Counted from the first letter of the stretch, positions 38,932-63,048 are shown. The stretch is DNA of 64,000 nucleotides from an uncultured Methanosarcinales archaeon (GCA_964452935.1 CAYVNO010000006.1:5574-69573), one strand, 5' to 3'. Notes: a model not told the origin generated them from the letters alone. Translations and numbers: made by a program.

Positions 38932-39033
38932 GCATTAATGCCGCCAAGCGAAGTTATAAAAACTGGAAGTACTAATGCTAGAAGTTACTGATAATGTTGT
39001 ATTATACTGAAACAGGAAGCGCAGCATTAATGC
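38932..39033. repeat. Copy E1 of a structured intergenic repeat family (candidate ncRNA or MITE-like element)
   Basis: 5' GCATTAATGCCGC pairs with 3' GCGCAGCATTAATGC. Conserved blocks CCGCCAAG, CTAGAAGTTACTGA and ACAGGAAGCGCAG. Confidence 0.55.
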
Positions 39034-39044
39034 TACAACGTAAG

Positions 39045-39584
39045 TTAATGTTCAACCCTAATAACTCCATCTGTAACATGAGTTATCCCACTTTCAACAT
39101 TTCTATAAGAAATTTCAATATCTGTCTTCAAATCTTCCTCAATTAGTCCACCATTACATCGAAACTCAATAACCGCACTCTCTCTGTCTCCTAAAACAAC
39201 ACCATCACTATAAACAACTCCTCCTTCTAACGTAGAATAAACACTAATCAATGAAGCATATTCACACTGTCTTGTCCCTTTTATCTCAGATCCAATCTGG
39301 TCAATTGGATATCCTAACTCATTAATAATCGCTAATTTTACAATACCTGTATTAAAATCCACAAAAGGTTCAACACATTTAATCCCATCTAACTTACATT
39401 TGTCCACATCAAACTGAATAGGAGTAAGAACCCCTAAATAAGCTAAAATAAAAGTGGCAGCAACTATAACTAATATGGCCCAACCATAAGTCATAAGAAA
39501 CTCTAAATAAGCATGCAATCTCATAGTAATACCTCTTTTTATACTTTGATAGTACAATGAGTATATAATCTTTACTGTCTTCAT
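39045..39584 (-). CDS. Archaeal type IV pilin-like protein (class III signal peptide)
   Basis: MRLHAYLEFLMTYGWAILVIVAATF resembles archaeal prepilin N-termini. The true start is probably this internal Met (about 39524). My hand translation did not reproduce the first 20 codons of the track ORF, so the 5' end is uncertain. Confidence 0.55.
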   Translation of the reverse strand: MKTVKIIYSLYYQSIKRGITMRLHAYLEFLMTYGWAILVIVAATFILAYLGVLTPIQFDVDKCKLDGIKCVEPFVDFNTGIVKLAIINELGYPIDQIGSEIKGTRQCEYASLISVYSTLEGGVVYSDGVVLGDRESAVIEFRCNGGLIEEDLKTDIEISYRNVESGITHVTDGVIRVEH

Positions 39585-39635
39585 TTAAATACTTCTGGGG
39601 AAATCTTTATAAATCTCAAATCCAAACATTAACCT

Positions 39636-39962
39636 ATGAGGAAGCAGGATTTAGGACTAACAACATATCTCTGGAAAAGAAAGAAAAACAAAATATCATT
39701 ACTATTTGATAATCTAAAATCAATAATCAAATGGTGCCCTCACAAAGGAGACAACACCATCAATGAGTCAGACCTAAAAAGAGAGACAATAAATCCGGGA
39801 GCAAATGATGTTATAGTAATTCAGTCTGAACCAAACTTCTTCCAAAAAAACTATAACAAAATAACAGATTACATTCAAAAGAAAAGACACCAAAGAAGAA
39901 TAGATAAGGAACAAAGATTACAAGACCACATTGACTCACAGATTGCTAACTCTAAAAAGTAA
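39636..39962 (+). CDS. Hypothetical protein
   Basis: ORF track. TATA-like CTTTATAAAT about 30 nt upstream. No motif recognised. Confidence 0.4.
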   Translation: MRKQDLGLTTYLWKRKKNKISLLFDNLKSIIKWCPHKGDNTINESDLKRETINPGANDVIVIQSEPNFFQKNYNKITDYIQKKRHQRRIDKEQRLQDHIDSQIANSKK

Positions 39963-40054
39963 TTTCTACATAGTTAAGAAAAAACAAGATACAATCAATA
40001 TATGCCACAACATACAAATAAATTTATAAAACTAAACATCATTCAAAATTAACT

Positions 40055-41458
40055 GTGATCAATTTGGAAGATAACTACGATGTAATCATTGTTGGAGCAG
40101 GGCCTGCAGGTTTATTTGCAGCTTATTCTTTTGTTGATAAAAACAAAAAAGTCTTAGTGTTAGATGAAGGCCATGAACCTATGAAGAGAAAAGAGTTTGT
40201 AGATAACAAACAACTAGTTGTAGAAGGCATATCAAACATAATGAGTGGAGTTGGTGGTGCAGGTTTGTTTTCAGATGGAAAACTTAACTATATCTCAAGA
40301 TTAGGTAAAACAGATTTAACAGAATTCATGCCTTTGGATGATGCAGATAAACTAATTGACGATGTAGAAAAAATCTTCAACCAATTCAATATGGATGGCA
40401 AAGTCTATCCAACTGACATGGAAAAAGCCATAGACATAAAAAAAACAGCAAAAAATCACGGCGTAGACCTATTAATAATTAAACAAAAACATCTAGGTTC
40501 AGATAATCTTCCATACCACATCCAAAATATGGTTGATTGGTTAAAAACAAAAGGTGTAGAATTCAAAACAAATGAACACATTACTGAAATTATAATCAAA
40601 GGTGATGACTGTATAAGAAATGTAGTTGGTGTAAAATCATCAAGCAACACATACAAGGGAAAAAATGTAATTGTAGCACCAGGAAGAACTGGATCAAAAT
40701 GGTTATATGAAGAAGCAAAAAGATTGGGTATTCAAGTTAAATACAGAGCAGTAGAAGTTGGAGTTAGAGTTGAAGTCCCAAAAGAGATCATGGATAAAAT
40801 AACAAGTATAATCTATGACCCGACTTTTTTTATCTACACAGATACATATGACGACCACATAAGAACATTCTGTACTAACAGAGATGGATTTGTAGCAAGA
40901 GAAGATTATAATGGTGGATTTGTCTGTGTTAACGGACACGCAGAAAAAAAGAGGCATTCAGAAAACTCAAACTTTGCATTTCTAAGTAAAATATCTTTAA
41001 CAGAACCAATGACTGACACATATAAATATGGAAAATCTATAGGACAATTAGCAACAACAATTGGTGGAGGAAAACCAATTCTTCAAAGATATATTGACTT
41101 GAAAAAAGGAAGAAGAAGTACTTGGGAAAGAATAAAAAGAAGTTATGTAACTCCAACACTAAAAGATGCAACTCCTGGTGATATTTCAATGGCATTACCT
41201 TCAAGAATTGTAACAAATATTGTAGAAGGTCTAGAAAAATTAAACAATATTATTCCTGGAATAGCCTCAAACTCAACTTTATTATACGCTCCTGAAATAA
41301 AATTCTTTTCTACACAAATCGAATCAAATAATGATCTACAAACAAAAATTAATGGACTATCTATCGCAGGAGACGGAGCAGGCGTCGCAGGAAATATTGT
41401 AGGTGCAGCCGCTACTGGGCTCATAGCTGCAAAAGGAATTCTAAAGAAAGAAAGATGA
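40055..41458 (+). CDS. FAD-dependent oxidoreductase (COG2509-like)
   Basis: YDVIIVGAGPAGLFAA dinucleotide motif. GTG start. C-terminal GDGAGVAGNIVGAA. Confidence 0.75.
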   Translation: MINLEDNYDVIIVGAGPAGLFAAYSFVDKNKKVLVLDEGHEPMKRKEFVDNKQLVVEGISNIMSGVGGAGLFSDGKLNYISRLGKTDLTEFMPLDDADKLIDDVEKIFNQFNMDGKVYPTDMEKAIDIKKTAKNHGVDLLIIKQKHLGSDNLPYHIQNMVDWLKTKGVEFKTNEHITEIIIKGDDCIRNVVGVKSSSNTYKGKNVIVAPGRTGSKWLYEEAKRLGIQVKYRAVEVGVRVEVPKEIMDKITSIIYDPTFFIYTDTYDDHIRTFCTNRDGFVAREDYNGGFVCVNGHAEKKRHSENSNFAFLSKISLTEPMTDTYKYGKSIGQLATTIGGGKPILQRYIDLKKGRRSTWERIKRSYVTPTLKDATPGDISMALPSRIVTNIVEGLEKLNNIIPGIASNSTLLYAPEIKFFSTQIESNNDLQTKINGLSIAGDGAGVAGNIVGAAATGLIAAKGILKKER

Positions 41459-41467
41459 TATAAACAG

Positions 41468-42175
41468 TCACTTCTTTAGCTCTTCTAACATTCTTTTCAC
41501 TAAACTTGCTTTTAGGTTATCACCTAAAACTTGTTCTGCAATATATTCTTGTAAATCAAATCTAGAAATAATCTTATCAGCAGCTTTTTTTACACCAACA
41601 TTTATTTTAAATTTCTTTCCAGAATAAAATAACAAAGCAAAGATATCACACGCATCTTTTAATTCTTTGTCTAATTTTTCTCTTTCAAAAAATGAAGTTA
41701 CTTTTAGGTTCAATAAAGAATCAACAGTAAAAACTGGACATCCTTCAATTTCCTCTGTTTTCATATTTTCTAATTTAGGAAACACCCAACTCCCCAACAT
41801 TTTAGTCTTTTTATCTGAGAACACATCTAAAAAAATATAAACAAGATTAAAAATAGGTTTTTGTTTGGATCTCTCGGAAGAAATTATCTTATTTTCTCCT
41901 CTGTCATAAATTAGTTCATATCTAAAACTATAAGCACTTCCTGTAAACCCCATCCCCTTAATAATATCAAAAAATTCTTGTTCATTCTTATGGTCCACAA
42001 AAACATCAATATCTCTTGATCTTAAATACTCTTTGCCAAAAGCTTTCTGATATTCATCTTTTACTTGTAAAAAAACCGCCCACCCTCCGAGAACAGCCCA
42101 CCTAAGATCTGTAATCTTTTCTTTTAATTTTTGTAGATATTCATACGATATATCTGTTTCAACAGGATCATACAT
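41468..42175 (-). CDS. AbiEii/AbiGii-like nucleotidyltransferase (type IV toxin candidate)
   Basis: LGGWAVFL ... RSRDIDVFVD resembles the GGxAL...DxD NTase core of AbiEii. 8-nt overlap with the upstream wHTH gene. Confidence 0.5.
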   Translation of the reverse strand: MYDPVETDISYEYLQKLKEKITDLRWAVLGGWAVFLQVKDEYQKAFGKEYLRSRDIDVFVDHKNEQEFFDIIKGMGFTGSAYSFRYELIYDRGENKIISSERSKQKPIFNLVYIFLDVFSDKKTKMLGSWVFPKLENMKTEEIEGCPVFTVDSLLNLKVTSFFEREKLDKELKDACDIFALLFYSGKKFKINVGVKKAADKIISRFDLQEYIAEQVLGDNLKASLVKRMLEELKK

Positions 42176-42785
42176 CTTTTTCCCTCATTATTTTCAAAAT
42201 TTGTTCAGCAGCTTCTTCTGCCCTTCCACCATAAGATAAAAGATCGGTATATAGTTGAGGTAGAGAAATTATTTTAACATCTCTTACCTCTTGACTACCA
42301 TAAAAATGATTCTCATCAACTAAATAACAAACAATATTGCCTTTTTCTGCTAACATAATTCCATTTTTTATAAATATATCCTTAATTTTTTCTTTCTCTG
42401 GAATATAAAGATGAACTTTATTTGGAGCAACATAAGGAGATATGATTTCTGTAGCAGAAAACAAGGTAAAAGCATATTCTTCCTTCCTTAGCAATTGACT
42501 TATCTTTTTAATTAAATATTGAGGTCTTTCCGGAGCCAAAAACTCCATTCTTTGATTTTCTTTAATAGAAACAGTATATGACCATGCTTTTAATAACTTT
42601 TCATAATTAACTACCTTTATTCCCCTTCTTTTTTCTAAATGACCACACGATTCTAAAGCTCTAACTATCTTGACAGTCATTCCCAACGATACTCCAGCTT
42701 TCTTAGCAAGATCTCTAACTGTTAGTTTCTCTTTCTCATTCAATAAAACTCTTATTATGTCTTGCGTTGTCTTGTTCAATATCAT
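42168..42785 (-). CDS. AbiEi-like wHTH transcriptional regulator (antitoxin candidate)
   Basis: N-terminal wHTH (TVRDLAKKAGVSLGMTVKIVRALESCGHLEKRRG). C-terminal LPQLYTDLLSYGGRAEEAAEQIL resembles the AbiEi C-terminal domain. Confidence 0.5.
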   Translation of the reverse strand: MILNKTTQDIIRVLLNEKEKLTVRDLAKKAGVSLGMTVKIVRALESCGHLEKRRGIKVVNYEKLLKAWSYTVSIKENQRMEFLAPERPQYLIKKISQLLRKEEYAFTLFSATEIISPYVAPNKVHLYIPEKEKIKDIFIKNGIMLAEKGNIVCYLVDENHFYGSQEVRDVKIISLPQLYTDLLSYGGRAEEAAEQILKIMREKDV

Positions 42786-42791
42786 TTTTAT

Positions 42792-42819
42792 ATGTTCACA
42801 GTAGTTTATAAATGTTCAC
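42792..42819 (-). promoter_or_regulatory. Promoter of the AbiE-like operon: TATA box flanked by two 8-nt direct repeats
   Basis: ATGTTCAC at 42792..42799 and 42812..42819 (GTGAACAT on the coding strand) flank TTTATAAA (42805..42812), about 23 nt upstream of the ATG at 42785. Confidence 0.4.
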
Positions 42820-42992
42820 TCATATTTAAATATTTATATACTGAAACATACATGTAAGCAACAAAAGTTATATATGAATAAAACTTACATGTCTAACACA
42901 TAAATAATACTTAATTTCATCAAATAGTGGTAACATAACCAAAAGATTTATATATGGCCTCCAATTCTTCTACATCATAAATATTCACCGAG

Positions 42993-43949
42993 GTGCTTAA
43001 TAAAATGAGTTTAGAAGGACAATTAACAAATGAGAGAGGAACATTAAAAGAATCATATTCTAGAGTAAAACCTGAAACAGTACAACATTCTGATGAAATA
43101 CAAACAGATAGACTGACTGATGAAGGATTAAGAAATGTATGGTTTTGGACAGCAGATTTTCCAATGTACAGAGTTGAAGATGATAAAGGGAATGCTGTTC
43201 AAGGCAGAGCTGTTGAAGATGGTGAAGCAGTATTATATTTAGCAAGAAGAGAGCATAATTTAGTTTTTCAAAACATAGAAGAAGCTACAGATCAATTAAT
43301 AAGAACTAATAATTATGTTGTAGAAAATCAAGAGGATATTGAATCTATGGTAAATGCAGAATCTACTGTAAGGATAGTGCTTTCAAACTTAGGGTTGAAA
43401 AGGCACAATGATGAATTTTCTTATATTGAATTAAACACTAAAACATTAGCAGAAGGAAGAGAAGCTGTCTTAGAACAGTATGGAGAAGATGTTACTGCTT
43501 TTGTTGACAGGGTTCATGGAGATGCTGGTTATGAAAAAGAAGGCATTGGTGATTTGTTGGCAGAGAAAGGAAGAAATATTACAAGGATTTATGTTTTAAA
43601 TCCAGAATATGTTAAAGGTAAACGTGCAATTAGGGAAGGTAAATCTCTTGCGCGGGCTTGTAGGCTCGTTGACTTTGACTACTATTCCAATTTCTACGCC
43701 GGTGTCCGTAATGTTGACGAGTCCGACTATGCCCTGCGTGGGGTACCAGTTATCGCCGAAGGCGACGCACAAAATTTAGAACATAGTGCACAAGTAGCTT
43801 CAAAAGAAGTAACAGCAAAATACACTCCTGAAGGTGTATTAAGTTACATGAGTGCACATAAGCAAGAACTTGCAGATGCAATGCAACCATCTAATAACAT
43901 AGATCTTGCAGAAGTTCAACTTATGTATGATACTAAACAAAACCAATAA
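42993..43949 (+). CDS. DGR target (variable) protein, 318 aa, no signal peptide recognised
   Basis: Contains the VR at codons 219-250 (LARACRLVDFDYYSNFYAGVRNVDESDYALRG). N-terminal two thirds acidic, with no known motif. Confidence 0.8.
   Translation: MLNKMSLEGQLTNERGTLKESYSRVKPETVQHSDEIQTDRLTDEGLRNVWFWTADFPMYRVEDDKGNAVQGRAVEDGEAVLYLARREHNLVFQNIEEATDQLIRTNNYVVENQEDIESMVNAESTVRIVLSNLGLKRHNDEFSYIELNTKTLAEGREAVLEQYGEDVTAFVDRVHGDAGYEKEGIGDLLAEKGRNITRIYVLNPEYVKGKRAIREGKSLARACRLVDFDYYSNFYAGVRNVDESDYALRGVPVIAEGDAQNLEHSAQVASKEVTAKYTPEGVLSYMSAHKQELADAMQPSNNIDLAEVQLMYDTKQNQ
43648..43741 (+). repeat. DGR variable region (VR)
   Basis: Aligns without gaps to 44196..44289. 13 mismatches, 12 of them at positions where the TR has A. 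Confidence 0.85.
43753..43765 (+). promoter_or_regulatory. GC-rich hairpin 11 nt downstream of the VR (candidate DGR target-recognition element)
   Basis: TCGCC-GAA-GGCGA, a perfect 5-bp GC-rich stem with a 3-nt loop in an AT-rich genome. Confidence 0.4.
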
Positions 43950-44195
43950 TTTTATTAATTTCTAATTTTATTTTTTCTTTTGTCTCAGTATGACTCTACT
44001 TGTATAAGTGGAGTAGTGCTGGACTACATGCTCTTTTGCTATGGCAAACGATATTGTTTGTTATAAAATACAGCTGTGACACATGAACTGAGGTTTATAT
44101 GGTTGAAACAGCAGTGCAAGATACATGAAAACTTATTTAGTTTTTCATGTCCTAAAAATCCATTTGGGTTTTTATGACAGCAAAAGAGCTACTAG

Positions 44196-44289
44196 TTGCG
44201 CGGGCTTGTAGGCTCAATGACTTTGACAACAATTCCAATTTCAACGCCAATGACCATAATGTTGACAATTCCAACAATGCCCTGCGTGG
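44196..44289 (+). repeat. DGR template repeat (TR)
   Basis: Contains 10 AAY codons in the VR reading frame. Lies 34 nt upstream of the probable RT start codon. Confidence 0.85.
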
Positions 44290-44323
44290 AATAGCCCACA
44301 CTTATGCTGAGACAATTATTAAA

Positions 44324-45434
44324 ATGCGCAGAGACTTATGGAAAGAATTTACAAGCTATGACAACCTCAAACTTGCGTACCAAAAAGCAAGGAAACATAA
44401 AACAACTAAAGATTATGTTATTGATTTTGAGAAAAATCTTAAAACTAATCTTCTCCTGCTTCGTTCTGAACTTTTACTACATTCTTATAGACCAAAACCC
44501 TTAGTAAATTTTATCATCAGAGACCCAAAGACTAGAAAAATAAGCAAATCTGATTTTAGGGACAGAGTTATACATCATGCTTTATGCAACATTATAGAAC
44601 CAATCTTTGAAAAAGGTTTTATCCATGACTCTTATGCTAATCGAATAAATAAAGGCACTCTAAAAGCAATTGAAAGATTTGATTATTTCAAAAGAAAAGC
44701 AACAAAGAATAACACAATAAAAGCTTACGTCTTCAAAGCAGACATAAAAAAATACTTTGAAAACATAAACCATAAAATCTTGTTAAATATAATCAAGAGA
44801 AAAATAAGAGATAAAAAAGTTTTATGGCTAATAAGACTGATACTTAGTCACGCAGGGGGGGGGCGAACAGAAGAATGGAATGCCTTTGGGCAATCTCACG
44901 TCCCAATTCTTTGCCAATGTTTATCTTAATGAACTTGATTATTTTGTAAAACATAAACTAAAAATAAAATATTACATTAGATATGTTGATGATTTTGTAA
45001 TTATTCATAGATCAAAAGAGAAAATTGAAGAATACAATAACAAAATAAATCACTTCCTAACAAATAGATTATCAATCCAACTACATCCTGATAAATCTAA
45101 GATCATCCAAATGAATAAGGGAATAAACTTTCTAGGATTGAAAATCCTTCAATATCATAAGATCATACAAAAGAAAAACAGAAGACAATTCACCAATAAA
45201 TTAAACAATTATGTCTCAGAATACAAGGAAAACAATATGAACTATGATAAAATCTATGATTTTCTTGAAGGATGGTTGGCTTACACTAAACACACAAATT
45301 CATACAAACTAAGGAATAAAATTACTAGTAAGATAGAAAAAACATTTCACAATGAGATATCAACAAAAGAAATAAATAGAATAATAAAACTATCTACAGA
45401 CTCAACGAAGAATAATACAAATGACTCATTATAA
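44324..45434 (+). CDS. DGR-type reverse transcriptase, interrupted by a +1 frameshift in a G9 homopolymer (44855..44863)
   Basis: Track ORFs 44174..44929 and 44880..45434 are in different frames. The first carries RT motifs 1-3 (RKISKSDFRDRVIHHAL). The second carries motif 4 PLGNLTSQFFANVYL (the DGR-typical (I/L)GxxxSQ) and motif 5 YIRYVDDF. The probable start is ATG 44324; upstream codons are just the open TR. Confidence 0.8.
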
Positions 45435-45978
45435 AATTATGTTGGAATAACGCCCACATTTTATATCTCTCCATCATATCAGGATCAATATAATTTGCTT
45501 CACAATGCATTATCTGATTCATCTTTGTCGCTCTTATTATCTCTGTAACCTCTTTAAATGTTGCTGTCTGTTGATTCTCTCTTGCCTCAACCGGTCCTCT
45601 ATCTTCCTCTCCCCAAGATAAACTTGAATAATCATAATCAACTGAACCATACACATTCTCTCTCAAATACTCTGATAAGAATCTCTGATAAGCTTGTAAC
45701 TGTTTAGCATATTGCTCAATATGGAATCTCTCAAAACCATCCATCTTAACAGTGATGCCCAAGACACCGTCAAGAAATTTATCATTTTTCTTTCCTTGAA
45801 TCTCTTTATCATCATCTATTGCAGAAAAAGCATCCTTCTTTTTCTTTATTTTTGCTCTCTCCTCTAAATCCTTCTCAGATTTTCTCTGCAAGGCTTTAAG
45901 AAATAACTCTTCTAACTCACTAAGATCTGGCTTTTTCTCTTTTTTCTTCAATCTTTTAACAAGATCAACTTTTCCCAT
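45394..45978 (-). CDS. Hypothetical protein with a Lys/Glu-rich N-terminus
   Basis: ORF track only. Its 3' end overlaps the RT 3' end by 41 nt (convergent). Confidence 0.4.
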   Translation of the reverse strand: MGKVDLVKRLKKKEKKPDLSELEELFLKALQRKSEKDLEERAKIKKKKDAFSAIDDDKEIQGKKNDKFLDGVLGITVKMDGFERFHIEQYAKQLQAYQRFLSEYLRENVYGSVDYDYSSLSWGEEDRGPVEARENQQTATFKEVTEIIRATKMNQIMHCEANYIDPDMMERYKMWALFQHNFIMSHLYYSSLSL

Positions 45979-46281
45979 AAAAACAAAAAAGAATAAGTAA
46001 TATATAAATTATGTGCTATTAGCACTGGACACCATTTGTCCACTGGTCTTAAACTATTGAATTCTGGACTCTCAGCCTTTCTCTGACACCCCAAAAAGCA
46101 CTAGACTTGCTGGTGTGAAGCTTATATATGATTAATTCATTCTAATTATAAAAAAGACACGCAAATCTACTAAATAATATTTTTTGGTCATAGACACAAA
46201 AAATAATTATGTAGATTCGCTAGAAGTCTTTTTCTTAAAATACTCCAAACTTAAAATAATAAAAGTTTGGAGGTGTAAAGA

Positions 46282-48933: not shown

Positions 48934-49187
48934 TTTACAACCTCCATAAATGTTATTCAATTCAGAATCATGTGGACACTTATAAAGATTAACAATTAAA
49001 AAATAGACAATGTCCATATTATTATCTATTTTCATGGACAAAAACCAAAAGGTTTAAATATAAGCTGTACAGGTTATAATTTCAGAGTCGTGGAGATCAG
49101 TACGCTTATTCGCTCTGGTCTGAGGGGGGTCGAGGCTTCATATTCGCCAAACCCAATCACTTGTTGGCGCAGTGTAATTTACCCACA

Positions 49188-49201
49188 GATCAGAGCTGAT
49201 C
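49188..49201 (+). promoter_or_regulatory. Perfect palindrome GATCAG-AG-CTGATC immediately upstream of the lrp-like start codon
   Basis: Seen directly. A GATCAG half-site also occurs near 49094. Confidence 0.3.
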
Positions 49202-49204
49202 ATT

Positions 49205-49950: not shown

Positions 49951-49951
49951 A

Positions 49952-50955: not shown

Positions 50956-51004
50956 TTTAATTAGAATAAAGAGATTGTTTTTAAGTTTTTTGTATTAATA
51001 ACAA

Positions 51005-51098
51005 TAATGCTGCCAAGTGAAGTCCGAGATTCTGGTTGTAAATAAGCTAAAAGTTACTGACAATAGAGAACTACACTGAGACACGGAACGCAGCATTA
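51005..51098. repeat. Copy E2 of the structured intergenic repeat family
   Basis: 5' TAATGCTGC pairs perfectly with 3' GCAGCATTA. Blocks CTGCCAAG, CTAAAAGTTACTGA and ACACGGAACGCAG. T-rich tract follows. Confidence 0.6.
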
Positions 51099-51121
51099 AT
51101 GTCATTTGTTTTGTTGTTTGA

Positions 51122-52269: not shown

Positions 52270-52327
52270 ATGTATTCCCTTTATAAATGACTATTTAAAT
52301 CTTTCCATAGCCTTATAGCTTTGAGTA

Positions 52328-52425
52328 GCACCACTGCCAAGCGCAGTCCAATTATATCAACATAACTAAAACTAAAAGTTACTGAGAATGTAATAATTAT
52401 TCATAGACACGGAGCGCAGTGGCGC
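52328..52425. repeat. Copy E3 of the structured intergenic repeat family
   Basis: 5' GCACCACTGC pairs with 3' GCAGTGGCGC (one mismatch). Blocks CTGCCAAG, CTAAAAGTTACTGA and ACACGGAGCGCAG. Confidence 0.6.
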
Positions 52426-52474
52426 TATACTGCCCATAGCAACCTTTATAAATAAATAACAATTATCCTGTATA

Positions 52475-54054: not shown

Positions 54055-54071
54055 TAACCTTTAAAAAAGCA
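54055..54071 (+). promoter_or_regulatory. Promoter motif TAACCTTTAAAAAAGCA (TATA box), 18 nt upstream of ATG 54090
   Basis: An identical 17-mer with identical spacing recurs at 54444..54460. Confidence 0.55.
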
Positions 54072-54089
54072 ATCAAATTACTTCTTAAC

Positions 54090-54446: not shown

Positions 54447-54460
54447 CCTTTAAAAAAGCA
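54444..54460 (+). promoter_or_regulatory. Promoter motif TAACCTTTAAAAAAGCA (second copy), 18 nt upstream of ATG 54479
   Basis: Exact repeat of 54055..54071. The TAA is the stop codon of the preceding ORF. Confidence 0.55.
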
Positions 54461-54478
54461 GTTCTATTCCTCTCTTCT

Positions 54479-55321: not shown

Positions 55322-55359
55322 ACACAAAACTTTTTAAACTAATTCTCTATAACAATATT

Positions 55360-55845
55360 ATGATAAGAAAAGCAAAACTCAAAGATCTAAACATTATAGT
55401 AAAACTCTTTGATGAATTTATGAAAGAACATGATAGAATTATTCTAAAAGTAGATCCAAAAATAAAACCACATCTTTCAAGAAACAAAGGAGCAAAACTA
55501 GATTTCAAAAACTTTATGAGAAAAAACATTAAATCAAAGAACGCCTTAGTTCTAATCGCAGAAGTTGATAAAAACGTTGCAGGTTATTGTTTAGCTAAGA
55601 TTGTAGATAACATCTCAATATTCACAATAGAAAAACTCGGACATATTAATGATATATATGTTAAAAAACAGTACCAAGGATTAAAAATATCCTCAAAATT
55701 CAAAAACACAATAATGCAATGGCTCAAAAAAAGAAAAATAAAATATTCATCACTACAAGTCAACATCCAAAACAAACACGCACACTCAATCTATAAAAAA
55801 TGGGGATATAAAGACTTTAAGATGGAAATGCGAAAGAAGATTTAA
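55360..55845 (+). CDS. GNAT family N-acetyltransferase
   Basis: The pattern INDIYVKKQYQGLKISSKF (acetyl-CoA binding Q/RxxGxG/A-like) and the size are typical of GNAT. Confidence 0.75.
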   Translation: MIRKAKLKDLNIIVKLFDEFMKEHDRIILKVDPKIKPHLSRNKGAKLDFKNFMRKNIKSKNALVLIAEVDKNVAGYCLAKIVDNISIFTIEKLGHINDIYVKKQYQGLKISSKFKNTIMQWLKKRKIKYSSLQVNIQNKHAHSIYKKWGYKDFKMEMRKKI

Positions 55846-56063
55846 CCAATTCTCAAAACCTTCTCCCTACTCCTCAACCCTTTCTTAATTCTAACTTTAC
55901 GACCCAACTCTTTAGAAACAAACTTAACTAACTCTTTGTTTGCTTTATCTTTGTCAGCAACAGCTTTAACATCTACTCTAACTTTGCCATCCTTAACATA
56001 AATCTTATTACATTTAGAATTAGGTTTAACAATTACTTTCAATAAACCATCTTTAATATCCAT
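55842..56063 (-). CDS. DUF167 (YggU-like) protein
   Basis: VKPNSK...VDVKAVADKDKANKELVKFVSKELG...GLRSREKVLRI matches the DUF167 pattern. Confidence 0.7.
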   Translation of the reverse strand: MDIKDGLLKVIVKPNSKCNKIYVKDGKVRVDVKAVADKDKANKELVKFVSKELGRKVRIKKGLRSREKVLRIG

Positions 56064-56064
56064 T

Positions 56065-56355
56065 CTAACTCATGGCTTTTTCCATCTTCTTAAGCACAGA
56101 GTCAATACCAACTAACAAATTCCTTTCAGTAATTTCTGTATCATAATCCTTATCAGCACTTAAATGCGCCTTTAATTCATACAATTCAGATGTCTCTCTT
56201 TCATGCACAGTCTTCATTGTTACTGTTATGCTCTTAAAATTTCCTCTGTCAGCAAACCCTTTGACATAATTCCCTACAACTTTTTTAATAATAATCATAG
56301 TTGCAGGATCAACTTCTCTAAACCCAGAAAGAGTTATATTACCACCAAGTTCCAT
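56065..56355 (-). CDS. Small alpha/beta protein, possibly HPF/RaiA (S30EA)-like
   Basis: The pattern NITLSGF.EV.P....I.KKV...V..F then ITVTM...YELKAHL...Y.TEI...L...IDSVLKKMEKA loosely recalls ribosome hibernation factors. Weak. Confidence 0.35.
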   Translation of the reverse strand: MELGGNITLSGFREVDPATMIIIKKVVGNYVKGFADRGNFKSITVTMKTVHERETSELYELKAHLSADKDYDTEITERNLLVGIDSVLKKMEKAMS

Positions 56356-56438
56356 TATCAGTCACCTCTATTATTAATTAAGAATTTACTAGTATATTTA
56401 ATATTTAAATGTTCCCCTAAAAAAGCATCGATGGCATT

Positions 56439-56547
56439 GTGAGTTATACTGCCAAGAGTCTTTATAATGCTATAATTAGAAAGCGCTAAAAGTTACTTGC
56501 GTACATAGATTATATGGCCTTATTACAAGACTCGCAGTATTACTCAC
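56439..56547. repeat. Copy E4 of the structured intergenic repeat family
   Basis: 5' GTGAGTTATACTGC pairs with 3' GCAGTATTACTCAC (one mismatch). An inner GAGTC/GACTC pair follows a CAA bulge. CTAAAAGTTACT block present. A CCTAAAAAAGCA promoter-like motif lies just upstream (56416..56427). Confidence 0.6.
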
Positions 56548-56608
56548 TTCCATCCCATAATCTTATTTACTATAAACCTTTATAAACCCATATATAACCC
56601 TTTATATA

Positions 56609-57886
56609 ATGGCAGATAAGATCTTCATAAAAACATTCGGATGCAGCAATAATTTCCATGAGTCTGAGGTAATGGCAGGACTACTACAAGAATCTGGATA
56701 TATTATAACACAAGATCCAGTTAAAGCTAGTTTAATAATTATCAATATCTGCACAGTCAAAGGAGATAAAAACCCTTTGAAAGAAATCAAACTTACTCAT
56801 AACAAATACCCAGCAAAAAAACTATTAATAGCAGGTTGCATCCCAAAAGAGACACACCAAAGAATAAGAAAAGTATCAAAAGAAATATCATTCATCTCAA
56901 CACACAATATAACAAAAATAACTAAGACAGTAAACGAAGTTCTAGGTGATAACACAATCGAAGAACTAACTCCTGGAAACGAAACAAAGATTTGCCTACC
57001 AAAAGTAAGACAAAATCCAGTAATAAGTATAATCCCAATCGCCTCAGGCTGCCTTTCAAATTGTGCATACTGTTCTGTAAAAAAAATAAAAGGACACCTA
57101 TTCTCATACCCAAAAGAAAAAATAATCGAAGAAGTAAAAAAATCAATAAACGACGGAGCAAAAGAAATATACTTAACAGCACAAGACACAGGATGTTATG
57201 GAGAAGATATAAACACCTCACTACCAGAATTACTAAAAGAAATTATAAATCTGAAAGGAAACTTCTTAATACGTCTAGGAATGGCAAACCCAAACTTTGT
57301 AAAAAAACATCTGAAAGAACTCATCGAAATATTCAAACACAAACATATGTACAAATTCCTACACATCCCAGTTCAATCTGGCAATGACGAAATTCTAAAA
57401 GATATGAATAGAAATTACACTGCTGAAGAATTCAAAACAATCATAACTGAATTCAGAAAAGCAATCCCAGAAATAACAATCGCAACAGATATCATTGTAG
57501 GTTTTCCAGGAGAGACAGAAGAACAATTTAAAGACACACTAAAATTAGTAGATGACATTCAACCTCCAGTCTTAAACATCTCAAGATACTCAAGAAGACC
57601 AGGAACAAAAGCAGCATTCAAAAAAGAAATTCTATCAAGAACAGTCAAAGAACGTTCAAGAGAACTTACAGATAAATTCATTTTCATCGCATTCAACCAA
57701 CACATGAAATGGAAACACTGGGCAGGAAACATAATCATAGATGAACAAGGCAAAGACAACACAATGATCGGCAGAAACTACGCCTACAAACCAGTCATAG
57801 TCCAAGGCAGCTATCCATTAGGAAGAGTTCTAAAAGTAAAAATAATTAAAATTGGAAAACATGATCTACGAGGAGAAGTTATTTAG
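56609..57886 (+). CDS. MiaB-like radical SAM methylthiotransferase (archaeal/eukaryotic CDKAL1 type) with TRAM domain
   Basis: N-terminal FGCSNNFHESE (UPF0004), ASGCLSNCAYCSV radical SAM motif, and a C-terminal TRAM-like domain. Confidence 0.85.
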   Translation: MADKIFIKTFGCSNNFHESEVMAGLLQESGYIITQDPVKASLIIINICTVKGDKNPLKEIKLTHNKYPAKKLLIAGCIPKETHQRIRKVSKEISFISTHNITKITKTVNEVLGDNTIEELTPGNETKICLPKVRQNPVISIIPIASGCLSNCAYCSVKKIKGHLFSYPKEKIIEEVKKSINDGAKEIYLTAQDTGCYGEDINTSLPELLKEIINLKGNFLIRLGMANPNFVKKHLKELIEIFKHKHMYKFLHIPVQSGNDEILKDMNRNYTAEEFKTIITEFRKAIPEITIATDIIVGFPGETEEQFKDTLKLVDDIQPPVLNISRYSRRPGTKAAFKKEILSRTVKERSRELTDKFIFIAFNQHMKWKHWAGNIIIDEQGKDNTMIGRNYAYKPVIVQGSYPLGRVLKVKIIKIGKHDLRGEVI

Positions 57887-57912
57887 CCTTCTCCCCATAA
57901 ACCATTAAATAA

Positions 57913-58449
57913 TTAATTTGTCCTAAAAACTATTGATGTCCACCCAGGATCAGTATCAGGATCATTTTGATCTAAATACCATTTATTAGTATCATCAATA
58001 ATTTCACCAAACACTCTTTCTAAAGATATTGGTCCTTCTGTAAATCCTTGGGAATGCTCTCTTACTAAATCATCAATTTTTACAGAAGGACGTATCAAAT
58101 TAAATCTTTGTAAATACATCATAGTACATTTCAAGACAAGTAACCCTTTTATTTGATCTCCTGTTGATTCTTCTACAAACCTTCTAAATTCAGCAGAAGC
58201 AATGACATCTAGAACCTCAGCAGCATATGTAAAGCTTCCTGGAACTCTTTTTCCATATTTTCTATCACTGGCTGCAAAATGTTCTGTATGAAAAGCAACT
58301 CTTTGTTCTTCAGTTAAATGTAAAGAAATTCCTACGAACTCTGGATCAGGAGAATCAACATCTTTTAATTTCCATGTATAACCCTAAAGAGTATTTGGAT
58401 CCTTAGCATAACTCAAAGGTCTTATCTCATCATCTCCTATCACTCCCAT
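57913..58449 (-). pseudogene. Hypothetical gene interrupted by a single in-frame TAG (58384..58386)
   Basis: Hand translation from ATG 58449: MGVIGDDEIRPLSYAKDPNTL-TAG-GYTWKLKDVDSPDPEFVG...FRTN. 83 sense codons without any ATG/GTG/TTG lie between the TAG and the track ORF start (a TTG at 58134). TATA-like TTTTATATATTA lies upstream of 58449. Confidence 0.5.
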
Positions 58450-58522
58450 AAACCAAAGAAATCCAGTATAATATATAAAAGTTTATATACCTATTAATAA
58501 ATAAACAAAAAGAGGTGATATT

Positions 58523-58735
58523 ATGTACATAATAAAACAAACAGAAAAGTTTGCAAAGAAAATGAAGTGGTATGATTTCTCATTATTGAAATCACATGTT
58601 CTGTTCTTCACACTGTTCTTAGTAACAGTCTGGCCAGACTTCAGAAACCTTGTGTTAGGGATTGAATGGTACTGGTTTTTAACCATAGCAATGATTCTAT
58701 GGGTTCCATTAGCAAAGAAGTTTTTCTCAAGTTAA
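58523..58735 (+). CDS. Small two-TM membrane protein
   Basis: ORF track. Two hydrophobic segments. GAGGTGA Shine-Dalgarno-like sequence upstream. Confidence 0.35.
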   Translation: MYIIKQTEKFAKKMKWYDFSLLKSHVLFFTLFLVTVWPDFRNLVLGIEWYWFLTIAMILWVPLAKKFFSS

Positions 58736-58869
58736 ATTTTTTATTAGACACACAGACCATTTTGTTGGTATAAACAAAAAGGTATTGTTGTCATTTTGTG
58801 AACAACTGCTGTAAGAATGTGATCATCTGCAATGTTTTGATTTAAACATATAATTAGTATCAAACACCA

Positions 58870-58889
58870 TTTTCCTGGCGTCAGGAAAA
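58870..58889. terminator. Perfect 8-bp hairpin TTTTCCTG-GCGT-CAGGAAAA between convergent genes
   Basis: Seen directly, 13 nt beyond the stop of the ATPase gene. A terminator role is inferred. Confidence 0.3.
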
Positions 58890-58901
58890 CGATAGATATG
58901 C

Positions 58902-60728
58902 CTAAACCTCAATCTCTTTTCCATTAACTCCACTTACAAAAACAACTCTTGTCTCTTTTTTAGATTTCAACTTAACTTCATACAGTGGATAATAAACTAT
59001 CTCAGAATTAGCAACTTCAGCATTAAACTTCTTCTCAACTGACTTCTTCATATTACTCAGCTTTGGTTTCATTCCTTTTATCTCTCCATCATCTAACTCA
59101 GGAACATTACAATGTAATTTCTTCAAATTCTCTAACTCACTATACTTTCCAAGAATATCAATTGTATCTCCTCTAACTTTCAAAACATTCCCTTTCATTC
59201 CATCAATTAATAGATTATACTCTTTAACTTTCATACCAAACAATCCTTTCTTCTTAACTCTAACATCAAATAAATAAAAAGGATAATACAACAATTTCAA
59301 TGAACTAACTTTCTCATTATCAGATCCAAAAAACACAAACTTTTTTGACTTTTTACCATCTGCAAAATCTCTGACATATTCTTCTGAATAATTTAAACCA
59401 AAATGTCTTTTATATTTGCCTTTCTTCCTCTCAACCTCTAACTCCACTTCCTCAACTTCTATTTCTTTCTCCTTCCGCTTAACATAATATCTACTAAACT
59501 CCTCTCTAAGACCCAAATCATCAACAACTTTCTTAACAGCACTCTCACTAAGTGTCTTGTGCTCAGTATACAACCACCTAGTATTTATTAAAGGAATATC
59601 ATCAAAAACATCTGGTGCAAAAACAATAAACTCTCCTGGCTTTAACTTAGGCAAACTTTTAATAACTTCTCCACCATCTAGAGACTTCAACGCATCTTCT
59701 ATTTTCTTCTTATCTTGTTTAGTAGTTATCCTTCCAATAAGCCAGGTTCCAAACTGAGCAAACGCTTTGTAGTCGATATCTCCAGGATTCTGTGTACTTA
59801 CAACACAACCAATCCCATACTTCCTAGCCTGTTTAAATATCAACTTTAAAATTTCTTTTGTTACAGGTTTTCTTGCTCCTGCAGGAATAAACTCTGCAAT
59901 CTCATCTACCATAAACAACGCTTGTAAATCCTTCGAAGGATTTTTCAACATCCAATTATATAACTCATTAGCAATACTAAACAAGAAAAAGTGCTTATCA
60001 TCAACACTGTCCAAACAATTCAGATAAATAATATTAACCTGTCCTTTCTTTAACATTAAATTAATATCGATAGGCATACCAAACTGAAATAATAAATCCT
60101 TTGCACCAATGGTCAAAAACTTTATCTTTTTAGCAATTAACTCATAATCCTTTTCATTACTAATAAAATCTTTAACCTTTCTTTTAAGAGGGCCAGGATT
60201 TCTAACCTTTGAAGCCAACTTAGAAAAACTTCCTATCTCTTTTTTCTTCTTCCAAGAATCTAAAAATATCTCATACAACAAAGCTGCAGCAGCTTTCCCT
60301 TTATCAGTCCTCAAACTAAACCCAATCAATTTAGTTATAGATTCAGCTAACGCGTGAGTTATACCAACTAAATCTTCAAACTCAATATTTCCAGGAGGTA
60401 ATTTTAACGGACTTAAACATAACGGAACACCTTTAGAACTTGCAGGTGTAAAAATAACAACCTTCCTTTTCTTAAACTTAGAAAAACTTGTTTTATTAAA
60501 CTCTTCTTTCTCTTCACCAATTATTGCTAAACTAGCTAAATCACCTTGAGGATCAATTAATATGCTGGGAATATTATTAATTGCAGCTTCTTCAATCAAA
60601 CCCTTACATAAAACAGTTTTTCCGCTACCAGATCCACCAAGAGCTAACAAATGCTTTTTTAGAACAGCATCTGGCAAACTAAACTCCTTTTCCCAGATTT
60701 TACCTAGTTTTATATTAATTTTAATCAC
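58902..60728 (-). CDS. HerA/DUF87-type P-loop ATPase with an uncharacterised C-terminal domain of about 200 aa
   Basis: Walker A LGGSGSGKT, Walker B ALFMVDEIAEF, and ARKYGIGCVVSTQNPGDID typical of the DUF87/HerA central domain. 8-nt overlap with the HEPN gene. Confidence 0.7.
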   Translation of the reverse strand: MIKINIKLGKIWEKEFSLPDAVLKKHLLALGGSGSGKTVLCKGLIEEAAINNIPSILIDPQGDLASLAIIGEEKEEFNKTSFSKFKKRKVVIFTPASSKGVPLCLSPLKLPPGNIEFEDLVGITHALAESITKLIGFSLRTDKGKAAAALLYEIFLDSWKKKKEIGSFSKLASKVRNPGPLKRKVKDFISNEKDYELIAKKIKFLTIGAKDLLFQFGMPIDINLMLKKGQVNIIYLNCLDSVDDKHFFLFSIANELYNWMLKNPSKDLQALFMVDEIAEFIPAGARKPVTKEILKLIFKQARKYGIGCVVSTQNPGDIDYKAFAQFGTWLIGRITTKQDKKKIEDALKSLDGGEVIKSLPKLKPGEFIVFAPDVFDDIPLINTRWLYTEHKTLSESAVKKVVDDLGLREEFSRYYVKRKEKEIEVEEVELEVERKKGKYKRHFGLNYSEEYVRDFADGKKSKKFVFFGSDNEKVSSLKLLYYPFYLFDVRVKKKGLFGMKVKEYNLLIDGMKGNVLKVRGDTIDILGKYSELENLKKLHCNVPELDDGEIKGMKPKLSNMKKSVEKKFNAEVANSEIVYYPLYEVKLKSKKETRVVFVSGVNGKEIEV

Positions 60729-61242
60729 CTTTTTTTAGTATATCTTTTATCTTACCTATAAACAACATTGCTTTTAACCTTAACCCATTGACAGTAGTCT
60801 TATCAAATTTATAATTGCTTGAGTAGGTTGCTTCTTCTCTTTTATTCTTGCTCTGCACATAGAACAATAGATCTTGATAATCAAGAAAAAACTTATTCAC
60901 CATCATTATCTCTTCCTCACTAACTCCTTTATTGTAAAATTCTTTTATAAGAATACAAACAGTTGCATCATGATTCTTCGAACTAAATCCCTTAGAAAGA
61001 ATTAATGCAAGAGCAGCATGATAAGACGCATAATAGCACCCAGTAATGCACCAATCAAAATAACCTAGTTTCATAGTATCCTTTACAAACTCAAGATTCC
61101 TTTCTGACTTTTCTTTATGACCCTCTACTTCATCATGTTTAGGAGAATGTTTTTTAACTAAATCTTTCTTGACATAATTCTTTATCCTTTTTTCAACTTC
61201 TTTTTTGTCCGTCAATAATTTTTTCAATTGGAATTCATTCAT
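60721..61242 (-). CDS. HEPN domain protein
   Basis: KSERNLEFVKDTMKLGYFDWCITGCYYASYHAALALILSKG..SKNH resembles PF05168-type HEPN. The track ORF starts at 61272. The internal ATG at 61242 gives an ATGAATGA overlap with the MNT stop codon. Confidence 0.65.
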   Translation of the reverse strand: MNEFQLKKLLTDKKEVEKRIKNYVKKDLVKKHSPKHDEVEGHKEKSERNLEFVKDTMKLGYFDWCITGCYYASYHAALALILSKGFSSKNHDATVCILIKEFYNKGVSEEEIMMVNKFFLDYQDLLFYVQSKNKREEATYSSNYKFDKTTVNGLRLKAMLFIGKIKDILKKGD

Positions 61243-61828
61243 TGTAAACTTCCTCATAATAATATTTCTCATTAAATATTGGAAACCCAGTATTCAAAGC
61301 AGACTGTACAACCTTATCTTTCTTCCCAACAAGTTCCCTCTCAAAATCTTTTACAGTTAACTGAAATACACTAATTCTTATGCCTGTCTGTGACTCAACA
61401 TAACTTATTGTTTTCTTATTATCTGTCCTTGAATAAACAACTTCTAAAATATCAACGTCTGAGTCCTTTCTATATGTTCCCTTTGCCGTTGAACCAAACA
61501 AAATTAAAAATAGAGGTTTCTTTTGCAGATGTTTAACATAGTCTTTTATGGCATTCCTTCTCAATATCGGAAATTTTCCGACTCTTTCATAATCATAAAA
61601 TGGAAATATTTCAGGTATTATATTTTTTTTCAATCTAAACTTCTTCAAATTTGCTTCGCTCTCAAAACCTAAAACTCCATCTTTCAACATAGAATTAAGA
61701 TGTCTAGAAACACTACTCTCATTTAATCCGACATTCCTAGCAATCTCTCTTAAATGCACAGCTTTGTTTCTGTTATAATAAAACAACTTAATTATCTTAT
61801 ATATGGCATCTTTGAGTATTGTTTTCAT
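61235..61828 (-). CDS. wHTH-fused minimal nucleotidyltransferase (MNT)
   Basis: N-terminal wHTH (VHLREIARNVGLNESSVSRHLNSMLKDGVL) and the NTase core LFGSTAKGTYRKDSDVDIL (GSxxxG...DxD). Confidence 0.7.
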   Translation of the reverse strand: MKTILKDAIYKIIKLFYYNRNKAVHLREIARNVGLNESSVSRHLNSMLKDGVLGFESEANLKKFRLKKNIIPEIFPFYDYERVGKFPILRRNAIKDYVKHLQKKPLFLILFGSTAKGTYRKDSDVDILEVVYSRTDNKKTISYVESQTGIRISVFQLTVKDFERELVGKKDKVVQSALNTGFPIFNEKYYYEEVYNE

Positions 61829-61901
61829 TTTCCAAACAATTGTTTGAAATATTCAAACATTTATAAAGTTTTTGCTAAAAAGCATACAATAAAAAGAAAA
61901 T

Positions 61902-62915
61902 TCACTGCTTCCTTTCAATACCTAAAGATTCATCAGTCATTCTCATTGACTCTGCACCATTAGGAAATCCCATTGCGGCCCTTATAGCATCAATATTCTC
62001 AGGAACAACATCTGACTCTTGGTGAACCGCTTGTATAAAGAAGATCTCTTTTCCATGCACACCTACTCCTTCTTCCCATACACAAATGTCCATCATATCT
62101 CCTCTAGGTCCTCCTAACTCTTTAGCTAGTTCCATAATCTCTGCAGTAGACCTAACTCTATCAGAACCTCTAACAATCTTTATCCTTGGTTCATTCCTCA
62201 ACGCTTCTAAAACCTCATCTTTTGTCACTCCATCTGAAAGTAGATCAATACTTAGATTATGCATATGCATAAGTGTAGTAGGAACAACAACAGCTGTTGT
62301 AAAGACCTCAACATCAGGTAACACTGTTCTAACATCTGGTCCATGATGACTTGGTAACTCTAAAACAGGAACAATTGAATTTACTGGTCCCCTTTTTGTC
62401 TCACCAGGATCACTAGCTCTTCTTATCAAAGTAGCTCTAACTCTTTGAATAGGCCATCTCTTATTTATCGCATGAATTGTTCTTGACATACCAGTGGTGT
62501 TGCAACTTACAACTCTGATATAATTCTTTCCTAGACATTCATTATAATTACATTGTGCAACAAAACTTGCCTCAGCAATATTATGTTTCTCTCCACCCTG
62601 GAATAAAGCCTTTACTCCAGATTGAACATACTTGTCTTTCAACCCTTGTTTTTTTGGAGTACAATCAACAACAATATCTACTTTACTTAACATGTCATCA
62701 AAAGACCCAGCAGGTTTTATACCATTCTTAATAAAATCTTGTTGATCTCCAATAGCATAAATTGGAAACCCTTTAGAATTAGCAATCTCCATTCTATAAT
62801 TGTAAGAATAACCAGTAACTCCAACTAACTCCATGTCTTTCTGAAGAACAACAGCATCTGCTACTCTTTTACCAATTGTTCCATAACCAACAATTCCTAC
62901 TTTATATTTCTCCAT
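61902..62915 (-). CDS. gap: Archaeal type II glyceraldehyde-3-phosphate dehydrogenase
   Basis: KVGIVGYGTIGKRVADAV, the catalytic SCNTTG, and overall colinearity. I place the start at the internal Met MEKYKVG; the track ORF extends to 62957. Confidence 0.85.
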   Translation of the reverse strand: MEKYKVGIVGYGTIGKRVADAVVLQKDMELVGVTGYSYNYRMEIANSKGFPIYAIGDQQDFIKNGIKPAGSFDDMLSKVDIVVDCTPKKQGLKDKYVQSGVKALFQGGEKHNIAEASFVAQCNYNECLGKNYIRVVSCNTTGMSRTIHAINKRWPIQRVRATLIRRASDPGETKRGPVNSIVPVLELPSHHGPDVRTVLPDVEVFTTAVVVPTTLMHMHNLSIDLLSDGVTKDEVLEALRNEPRIKIVRGSDRVRSTAEIMELAKELGGPRGDMMDICVWEEGVGVHGKEIFFIQAVHQESDVVPENIDAIRAAMGFPNGAESMRMTDESLGIERKQ

Positions 62916-62941
62916 CACCATCTCCTCCTTTATCTTCGTCA

Positions 62942-63048
62942 AGAACACCTTTGCCAAGACCGGCTTTTAAATCCAAGGTAACAATGTCGGGACAAACCGT
63001 TTTCGGCTTAACTCTCCAACATCGAGCGATCGGTCGCAATGGTGTTCT
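62942..63048. repeat. Copy E5 (divergent, GC-richer) of the structured intergenic repeat family
   Basis: 5' AGAACACCTTTGC pairs with 3' GCAATGGTGTTCT (one mismatch). Same TGCCAAG block and CAA bulge, followed by a GACCGG/TCGGTC pairing. Lacks the central AAAGTTACT block. Confidence 0.45.

Follow-up and report, generated by a model that had tools for sequence, protein, structure and literature searches.

Dispersed intergenic elements closed by a covarying, bulged helix in an uncultured marine DPANN archaeon

A 64,000-nt stretch of archaeal DNA (GCA_964452935.1, CAYVNO010000006.1:5574-69573; hereafter, the window) contains five copies of an intergenic element of roughly 100 nt, designated here c1 to c5, which had been proposed to represent a new structured RNA family. 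The locus raises the question of what these elements are, and of what preserves a helix that closes each of them despite considerable sequence divergence. Our analysis supports the first half of that proposal, namely that the element is new and structurally constrained; an RNA gene on the plus strand could not be established, given the mixed contexts of the copies and an interior devoid of a conserved fold. The explanation that we favor, with a probability of about 40%, is that the copies form an archaeal counterpart of the repetitive extragenic palindromic (REP) and enterobacterial repetitive intergenic consensus (ERIC) sequences, that is, a lineage-specific dispersed hairpin repeat which would be read as structure, probably at the RNA level where it is transcribed.

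All five copies were found at the predicted places, on the plus strand and in spacers. The highest score with a covariance model built from the five copies (105.5 bits) belongs to c1 (38932..39033), closed by the arms GCATTAATGCCGC / GCAGCATTAATGC, which face each other over 13 positions with a single C.A mismatch and are followed by a CAA bulge (38945-38947) and the inner pairs GC/GC. In c2 (51001..51102; 93.5 bits), the arms ACAATAATGCTGC / GCAGCATTAATGT also span 13 positions with a single A.A mismatch, the CAA bulge occupies positions 51014-51016, and the inner pairs are GT/AC. The third copy, c3 (52325..52428; 88.3 bits), has the arms GTAGCACCACTGC / GCAGTGGCGCTAT with a single A.C mismatch and a terminal G.T, a CAA bulge at 52338-52340, and the inner pairs GC/GC. 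The ends of c2 and c3 had been placed too short, and the coordinates given here include 3-4 bp more. In c4 (56439..56547; 80.3 bits, z = -5.6), the arms GTGAGTTATACTGC / GCAGTATTACTCAC cover 14 positions with a single T.T mismatch, and the CAA bulge (56453-56455) precedes a longer inner helix, GAGTCTT/AAGACTC. Finally, c5 (62942..63048; 71.7 bits) is closed by AGAACACCTTTGC / GCAATGGTGTTCT over 13 positions with a single T.T mismatch, a CAA bulge at 62955-62957, and the inner helix GACCG/CGGTC.

In the window scan, the model scored 72-105 bits at the copies and, with filters off, detected no further credible copy in the window, the next match (19 bits at 15652) lying within a coding gene. Scanning independently for the architecture (an outer arm ending in GC, a 3-nt bulge, then G; a minimum of 11 outer Watson-Crick pairs and of two inner pairs, and 40-260 nt between the arms) returned exactly c1-c5 from the 64-kb window, all on the plus strand. 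Unrelated loci of bacteria, DPANN, and other archaea, 1.94 Mb in total, gave five matches, mostly GC-rich, and one genuine relative, whereas a bulge length set to 0, 2, or 4 gave zero matches in the window. A more general structural scan permitting G.U pairs was too noisy for use. The wider scanning by model and pattern that had been called for added only one member, which belongs to a sister species (CAYVNN010000004.1, locus L128, 3306-3461). This sister copy is a distant member of the family, 156 nt long, with the arms AATAATACCACTGC / GCTGTGGTATTATT, the bulge CTT, and the inner helix GGCTC/GAGCC.

What carries the argument for structural constraint is the closing helix. Pair counts were taken from an ungapped alignment of the six members (c1-c5 and the sister copy) trimmed to their closing modules. 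Counted from the bulge, outer positions 1-13 are paired in all six members and position 14 in two, beyond which the pairing ends abruptly; each member has exactly one internal mismatch, at a varying position. Both sides have changed in 10 of the 16 outer pairs and in 5 of the 7 inner pairs, a degree of covariation that none of 500 shuffles reached and that collapses when the register is slid by 1-3 columns. On the 5' arm, the bulge reads CAA in each of c1-c5; the sister copy has CTT in its place. The innermost outer pairs, (Y)TGC/GCA(R), are nearly invariant, and the module alignment contains the compensatory change from CTGC/GCAG to TTGC/GCAA that had been reported for c5. It likewise bears out the predicted covariation of the second inner pair (AU, CG, GC, or UA), which follows a first inner pair that is G:C in every member.

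The outer stems had been described as completely different between copies. Instead, they fall into two classes: class A, TAATG-CTGC/GCAG-CATTA (c1, c2, and c4), and class B, CACCA-CTGC/GCAG-TGGYG (c3, c5, and the sister copy). The stems of c1 and c2, the closest pair, are nearly the same, differing at 3 + 1 positions only, with the outermost pair changed from G:C to A:T. Copy-specific sequence is found in the outermost 4-5 bp (GCAT/ATGC, ACAA/ATGT, GTAG/CTAT, GTGAG/CTCAC, AGAA/TTCT, and AATAA/TTATT). The invariant part of the element comprises a helix of 13-14 positions with one mismatch, whose inner 9 bp occur in two sequence classes ending in YTGC/GCAR, a 3-nt bulge, and a further helix opened by G:C.

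Overall identity among c1-c4 amounts to 60-72% and is significant; despite this divergence, the closing helix shows changes on both sides of its pairs, in agreement with the claim that compensatory change has kept the pairing. According to our own estimate, neutral decay at 30-40% divergence would leave at least 12 of 13 pairs in ~2-3% of copies, compared with the six of six members observed. A helix that remains intact at 60-72% identity indicates that pairing has been maintained copy by copy, and not inherited from a recent copying burst, and it suggests that the cell or some enzyme reads the bulged helix. Such upkeep may act either via selection or via an arm-to-arm correction process, and the covariation of an inverted repeat alone cannot tell RNA structure from single-stranded DNA structure or from correction between the arms.

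The interior follows other rules. It is 73-125 nt long across the members, giving total lengths of 102-156 nt. Significant similarity covers c1-c4 overall, whereas c5 shares the closing module alone, and its interior has no significant similarity to those of the other four. In c1-c4, four blocks are held identical, GCCAAG, CTA[A/G]AAGTTACT(GA), ACA(C)GGA, and CGCAG, with the sequence between them roughly half identical. The central block, CTA[A/G]AAGTTACT, lies on the plus strand at 38978-38989 (c1), 51047..51058 (c2), 52372-52383 (c3), and 56486-56497 (c4), with the GA extension in c1-c3; it is identical in c2-c4 amid an interior of ~50-60% identity, and is missing from c5. The blocks CTAAAAGTTACTGA and ACA(C)GGA are apparently single-stranded in the four copies, and RNAalifold recovered no helix that is conserved within the interior. 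The type of interior is uncoupled from the class of the stem: c3 combines a class-B stem with an interior of the c1/c2/c4 type, while c5 and the sister copy have class-B stems, each with its own unrelated interior. Three or four internal hairpins are predicted in the interior of the sister copy, which is unrelated to those of the window copies. A search for empty palindromes, based on the idea that interiors were inserted into a pre-existing REP-like hairpin, found none. Two further features concern individual copies: c1 and c2 share upstream similarity, GTTTTTTG[C/T]ATTAAT (38920-38940 and 50984-51000), and c2 shows an apparent partial duplication of ~9 nt of its own 5' arm (TATTAAT / CAATAAT).

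A coding role was also considered. In c1 and in c2, the minus strand has a 30-codon open reading frame (ORF) that runs from arm to arm, ATG to TAA, and is open across the whole element (reverse complements; MLRFLFQYNTTLSVTSSISTSSFYNFAWRH in c1 and MLRSVSQCSSLLSVTFSLFTTRISDFTWQH in c2, each followed by the stop). It is nevertheless scarcely credible that the elements are small protein genes: the frame is closed or start-less in c3 and c4, the indels of c3 are not multiples of three, and c1 and c2 are 72% identical in DNA and ~43% in protein, with no sign of protein selection. With the frame closed in c3 and c4 and so low an identity between the two peptides, the ORF of c1 and c2 is probably fortuitous.

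Comparison with known RNA classes gave no assignment, as in the original prediction. Rfam 15 contained no match to any copy at gathering thresholds, and none appeared at E values up to 10 over 26 kb, on c2 alone, or on the sister copy. ARAGORN detected no tRNA in the window, and noise alone under relaxed intron settings. Among structural motifs, a bulge-helix-bulge was rejected on account of the single 3-nt bulge, which in c4, c5, and the sister copy is followed by 5-7 uninterrupted bp, and of the unbulged outer arm. A kink-turn (L7Ae site) was rejected on account of the two pairs after the bulge, which are Watson-Crick and covarying, not sheared G.A / A.G. For a C/D box small RNA (sRNA), RUGAUGA is lacking, and the CUGA motifs of c1 and c2 are just 15 nt apart, one of them being lost in c3 and c4. 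Other candidates considered from the sequence and rejected were H/ACA RNA, the cores of hammerhead, twister, and hepatitis delta virus-like ribozymes, and 5S rRNA. The same applies to the rolling-circle origin nonanucleotide (AAAGTTAC versus NANTATTAC) and to a transcription factor B recognition element with a TATA box on the minus strand.

Where the copies stand in the genome bears on all remaining explanations. The window is AT-rich chromosomal DNA (32% GC) of an uncultured marine DPANN archaeon. It encodes, inter alia, Nop5, fibrillarin, archaeal type II GAPDH, fructose-1,6-bisphosphate aldolase/phosphatase (FBPase), S-adenosylhomocysteine (SAH) hydrolase, and a MiaB-like enzyme. The closest GAPDH relatives carry the source names Woesearchaeota or Nanoarchaeota. 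The initial 38 kb form a single dense block of minus-strand genes with one spacer of at least 100 nt, which is why the copies are confined to the second half. Of the 13 spacers in the window that reach 100 nt, according to our tally from ORF lists and gene calls, five (about 40%) hold a copy, and the GC content of the copies is 35-48% compared with 27-30% in the surrounding spacers. Two copies are located downstream of genes. The first, c1, lies between convergent genes, 22 nt past the stop of an HD-domain gene (plus strand) and 12 nt past that of a 179-aa gene (minus), and c2 lies 20 nt past the stop of a 105-aa gene (minus) and 46 nt upstream of the PfkB start (minus), so that in the minus sense c1 and c2 follow stop codons by 12 and 20 nt. 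Two others separate divergent genes, namely c3, between the promoters of a 264-aa gene (minus) and Nop5 (plus), and c4, between a 96-aa gene (minus) and the MiaB-like gene (plus); the promoters flanking both fire away from them. The fifth, c5, is located inside the FBPase-GAPDH operon (both genes minus), 9 nt past the FBPase stop and 26 nt ahead of the GAPDH ATG.

The first genes of transcription units in this genome look leaderless: they lack a Shine-Dalgarno sequence, and their TATA box precedes the ATG by ~27 nt; the usual boxes are ATTTAAAT and TTTATAAA. Genes inside operons carry Shine-Dalgarno sequences of the GGAGG or GGTGA type. The palindromic octamer ATTTAAAT occurs at ten sites in the window (e.g., 34338, 39583, 42824, 52293, and 56403), several of them in other divergent spacers, and looks like the usual TATA box of the genome. 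Ahead of the GAPDH start there is a GGAGG and, at -27, no TATA box, which points to transcription that continues from FBPase through c5, opposite in sense to the strand on which the elements were described. Similarly, the sister copy lies between two co-directional genes, and the GAGGTGA ahead of the downstream gene suggests read-through across the element as the reverse complement of that strand. Judged from these signals, transcription of c5 and of the sister copy probably yields the reverse complement.

These observations are central to the most serious rival explanation, according to which the copies are stand-alone plus-strand sRNA genes of ~105 nt, with the helix as a platform for protein binding or processing and the loop block CUAAAAGUUACUGA as a seed or binding sequence. 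Structural covariation with a fixed helix length, identical internal blocks amid diverging surroundings, the raised GC content, and the orientation of all copies on one strand agree with it. The TATA-like motifs that had been noted upstream of c2, c3, and c4 are indeed present, centered 20-33 nt upstream of the first paired base, but those of c2 and c3 stand at the promoter distance of the neighboring minus-strand genes, whose promoters account for them, although palindromic boxes such as ATTTAAAT could in principle fire both ways. There is no TATA box upstream of c1, which starts 22 nt past a stop codon, right after a T6 run. A T-rich tract had been noted after one copy; T-runs are not consistent across the 3' flanks of c1-c5, and the copies lack a consistent promoter or terminator of their own. 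Also difficult for sRNA genes are the antisense position of c5 and the sister copy within operons and an interior that has no conserved fold and is wholly replaced in these two members. In addition, no member of the family was found in 30 other Woesearchaeota/Nanoarchaeota loci around GAPDH. Y RNAs, vault RNAs, Qrr, and LhrC resemble the element in their size (~100 nt), in ends paired in a conserved bulged helix, in a variable interior, and in the presence of several paralogues, whereas the element matches them neither in sequence nor through any Rfam family, lacks a defined promoter or terminator, and has some copies antisense in operons. No Ro/TROVE or vault protein gene was seen in the Pfam results for this stretch. 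On balance, we regard sRNA genes as a serious possibility, albeit an unlikely one.

The distribution of the element introduces a second rival. Near-identical strain contigs of the window population, retrieved through exact protein matches, are contained in several marine metagenomes, and in about ten of them the copies were unchanged, with neither presence/absence polymorphism nor an empty site. The nearest other species is the sister species (GAPDH 73% and Nop5 51% identical), which has one member in 37 kb. In this distant relative, the two orthologous spacers compared, those of c4 and c5, are without the element: the FBPase-GAPDH gap measures 15 nt there and 142 nt with c5 in the window, and the divergent MiaB spacer 126 nt compared with 253 nt with c4. 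The c1-c4 type was not found in the scanned GTDB species representatives, JGI metagenome contigs, and IMG/VR contigs, where pattern scans yielded 105 matches in genome contigs and 6 in metagenome contigs, all shown by model scoring to be due to chance, and none in viral contigs. Phage and plasmid collections gave no match either, and no further copy was present within ~2 kb past either end of the window. The known range is one species and one sister species, which limits the general importance of the element. Some short metagenome contigs (L225, L226, L113, and L114) end at element boundaries, two of them stopping 23 nt past the HD-gene stop, where c1 begins, and two starting 33 nt left of c2; this could be due to chance or to assembly breaking at repeats.

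Empty orthologous spacers are what would be expected of selfish DNA without host function, either a non-autonomous transposon of the foldback type or like a MITE (miniature inverted-repeat transposable element), or a single-stranded DNA hairpin used by an HUH/Y1-type or other recombinase. The complementarity of the arms would then be kept by the needs of transposition or by quasi-palindrome correction, and not by RNA function. Besides the empty spacers, the harmless nature of all occupied positions and the very narrow taxonomic range are consistent with it; terminal inverted repeats of transposons co-vary too, and, by our reasoning, the uniform orientation would suit single-stranded transposition tied to the direction of replication. 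A MITE had been envisaged from the outset, to be recognized by absence from orthologous sites and by flanking target-site duplications; the absence was observed, whereas no direct target-site duplication was found in the flanks of c1-c5 or of the sister copy at any boundary tried, the sequence just within the helix ends being complementary rather than repeated. Among the screened proteins of the 38-64 kb stretch, no transposase or integrase domain was detected, including that of Y1 transposase. Transposon termini are normally the best conserved part, but here the outermost 4-5 bp differ in every copy and yet pair. Identity of 60-72% excludes a recent burst, yet the helix is kept in all copies, the ~10 strain contigs reveal no presence/absence polymorphism, and binding of a transposase to the ends does not explain the identical internal block of 12 nt. 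Foldback transposons and MITEs, the archaeal MITEs of Sulfolobus and haloarchaea among them, resemble the element in being small, non-coding, intergenic, bounded by terminal inverted repeats, and absent at orthologous sites of a relative; the element differs from them in the lack of target-site duplication, unconserved outermost bases, strong divergence, an asymmetric 3-nt bulge, and the absence of a visible related insertion sequence. Taken together, purely selfish DNA appears to be a doubtful explanation, ranking below sRNA genes.

A more specific form of recombination deserves separate mention, as the copies could be attC-like sites of an archaeal integron or of a similar system for site-specific recombination of single strands. 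In its favor, we counted the integrons reported from Nanoarchaeota metagenome-assembled genomes (PMC9668308). Like attC sites, the copies are ~100-nt hairpins in uniform orientation; their structure is conserved and their sequence little so, some bases are extrahelical, and the apical part varies. However, neither RYYYAAC nor GTTRRRY boxes, i.e., the R''/R' core sites, occur in the arms, and cassette organization is missing. The spacing is 1.2-12 kb, the supposed cassettes would include core genes in both orientations (e.g., Nop5, fibrillarin, GAPDH, and SAH hydrolase), and no integrase was found among the screened window proteins. The missing R boxes largely refute this explanation, and we consider it very improbable.

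The dispersed hairpin repeat remains our preferred explanation. Patchy occurrence at tolerant sites, a replaceable interior, the lack of a promoter or terminator of its own, a narrow range, and strict upkeep of the helix fit such a repeat better than a classical family of sRNA genes. ERIC sequences, also known as intergenic repeat units (~127-bp imperfect palindromes of Enterobacteria), are comparable in being stem-loop elements of ~100-150 bp that are dispersed in transcribed intergenic or intercistronic regions, lack a transposase of their own, are present or absent at orthologous sites, and can sit inside operons. They differ in forming a long, near-continuous palindrome with highly similar copies; the element described here has no sequence similarity to ERIC, resides in a DPANN host, and is paired only in its 13-bp closing helix with the bulge, the interior being mostly unstructured and replaceable. 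REP sequences and bacterial interspersed mosaic elements (BIMEs) are likewise dispersed intergenic hairpins with a mismatch or bulge, maintained pairing, and a location after stop codons. REP/BIME elements stabilize the 3' ends of mRNAs. A REP is a bacterial sequence of 20-40 nt with a conserved 5' GTAG that is present in hundreds of near-identical copies and has a link to the gene of a REP-associated tyrosine transposase (RAYT); none of these traits is seen here. The element was not assigned to the REP/RAYT system itself, as its members measure 102-156 nt, 73-125 nt of which are interior, and the screened proteins of the 38-64 kb stretch included no Y1 transposase. A fixed 13-bp bulged helix, copy-specific outer pairs, and no target-site duplication place it outside the standard definitions of MITE, REP, and attC.

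If a hairpin repeat of this kind is assumed, the copies would have arisen via insertion at tolerant intergenic spots, just past stop codons, in an operon spacer, or between divergent promoters, and would afterwards have been kept by selection on the bulged helix. The helix may act as a structured RNA module wherever it is transcribed, with c5 and the sister copy presumably read within polycistronic mRNA in the sense opposite to that originally described. Most plausibly, such a module would serve as a protein binding or processing site and as a stable intercistronic or 3'-end stem-loop modulating the fate of the mRNA, as REP and ERIC do.

Several points weigh against this reconstruction. With only six members, which share ancestry, the shuffle statistics overstate the number of independent events. 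Wobbles and mismatches are about equally frequent on both strands, and the minimum free energy is better for the minus strand in three members, for the plus strand in two, and for neither in one, so that these counts and energies do not favor one strand. The promoters flanking c3 and c4 fire outward, and an mRNA-embedded role cannot explain the helix conservation of these two copies unless they have their own or bidirectional promoters. Mobility has the comparison with a distant relative as its sole ground, as no mobilizing enzyme, empty site among strains, or target-site duplication was found. Lastly, action at the RNA level is something that we infer.

A bolder proposal, which we regard as possible at best, casts the bulged 13-bp helix as a recognition platform in a hitherto undescribed, DPANN-specific RNA-protein system; the copies would be structured RNA paralogues of ~105 nt or modules within mRNAs, with exchangeable apical domains that bear different single-stranded recognition sequences. 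If true, archaeal RNAs with regulatory or processing roles would gain a new class. The genomes of DPANN archaea are very small and densely packed, and the spacers filled by the element include one inside an operon of central carbon metabolism. To our knowledge, neither a family of dispersed hairpin repeats nor one of multi-copy structured RNAs has been described for DPANN, and our search of the literature on DPANN MITEs and Woesearchaeota non-coding RNAs found nothing specific. Should the element act as RNA, it would open a new way into the post-transcriptional control of a lineage that has not been cultured; action as DNA would point to a mechanism, for mobility or for the maintenance of hairpins, by which no target-site duplication is left.

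Other features of the window were noted alongside the element. A further spacer, at 49086-49204 between the SAH hydrolase and Lrp/AsnC genes, has 44% GC compared with ~28% elsewhere and contains a possible hairpin of ~85 nt with GCTCTGGTCTG / CAGATCAGAGC as its closing arms (z of approximately -2 for both strands); Rfam gave no match to this spacer, which is outside the family studied here. At 57913-58470, on the minus strand, coding-looking sequence is split into short ORFs within a gene-poor 1-kb stretch and may be a decayed gene. Two likely toxin-antitoxin pairs are encoded. The pair at 41468-42785 consists of an AbiEi-like antitoxin adjoining a gene with a weak, below-threshold match to nucleotidyltransferases, and the pair at 60721-61828 of HEPN and MNT (NTP_transf_2) proteins. 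The latter lies, together with a HerA-like ATPase, in a segment of ~4 kb that separates GAPDH from MiaB and is missing in the sister species. The window also contains a complete diversity-generating retroelement (42993-45434), whose variable repeat (43648-43741) is situated at the 3' end of a 318-aa target gene and is 86% identical to the template repeat (44196-44289), with differences at template A positions. An RT-16 RNA motif (RF03019, 67.5 bits) at 43985-44197 is followed by the reverse transcriptase, encoded in two overlapping ORFs (44174-44929 and 44880-45434), a split that suggests a frameshift or a sequencing error.

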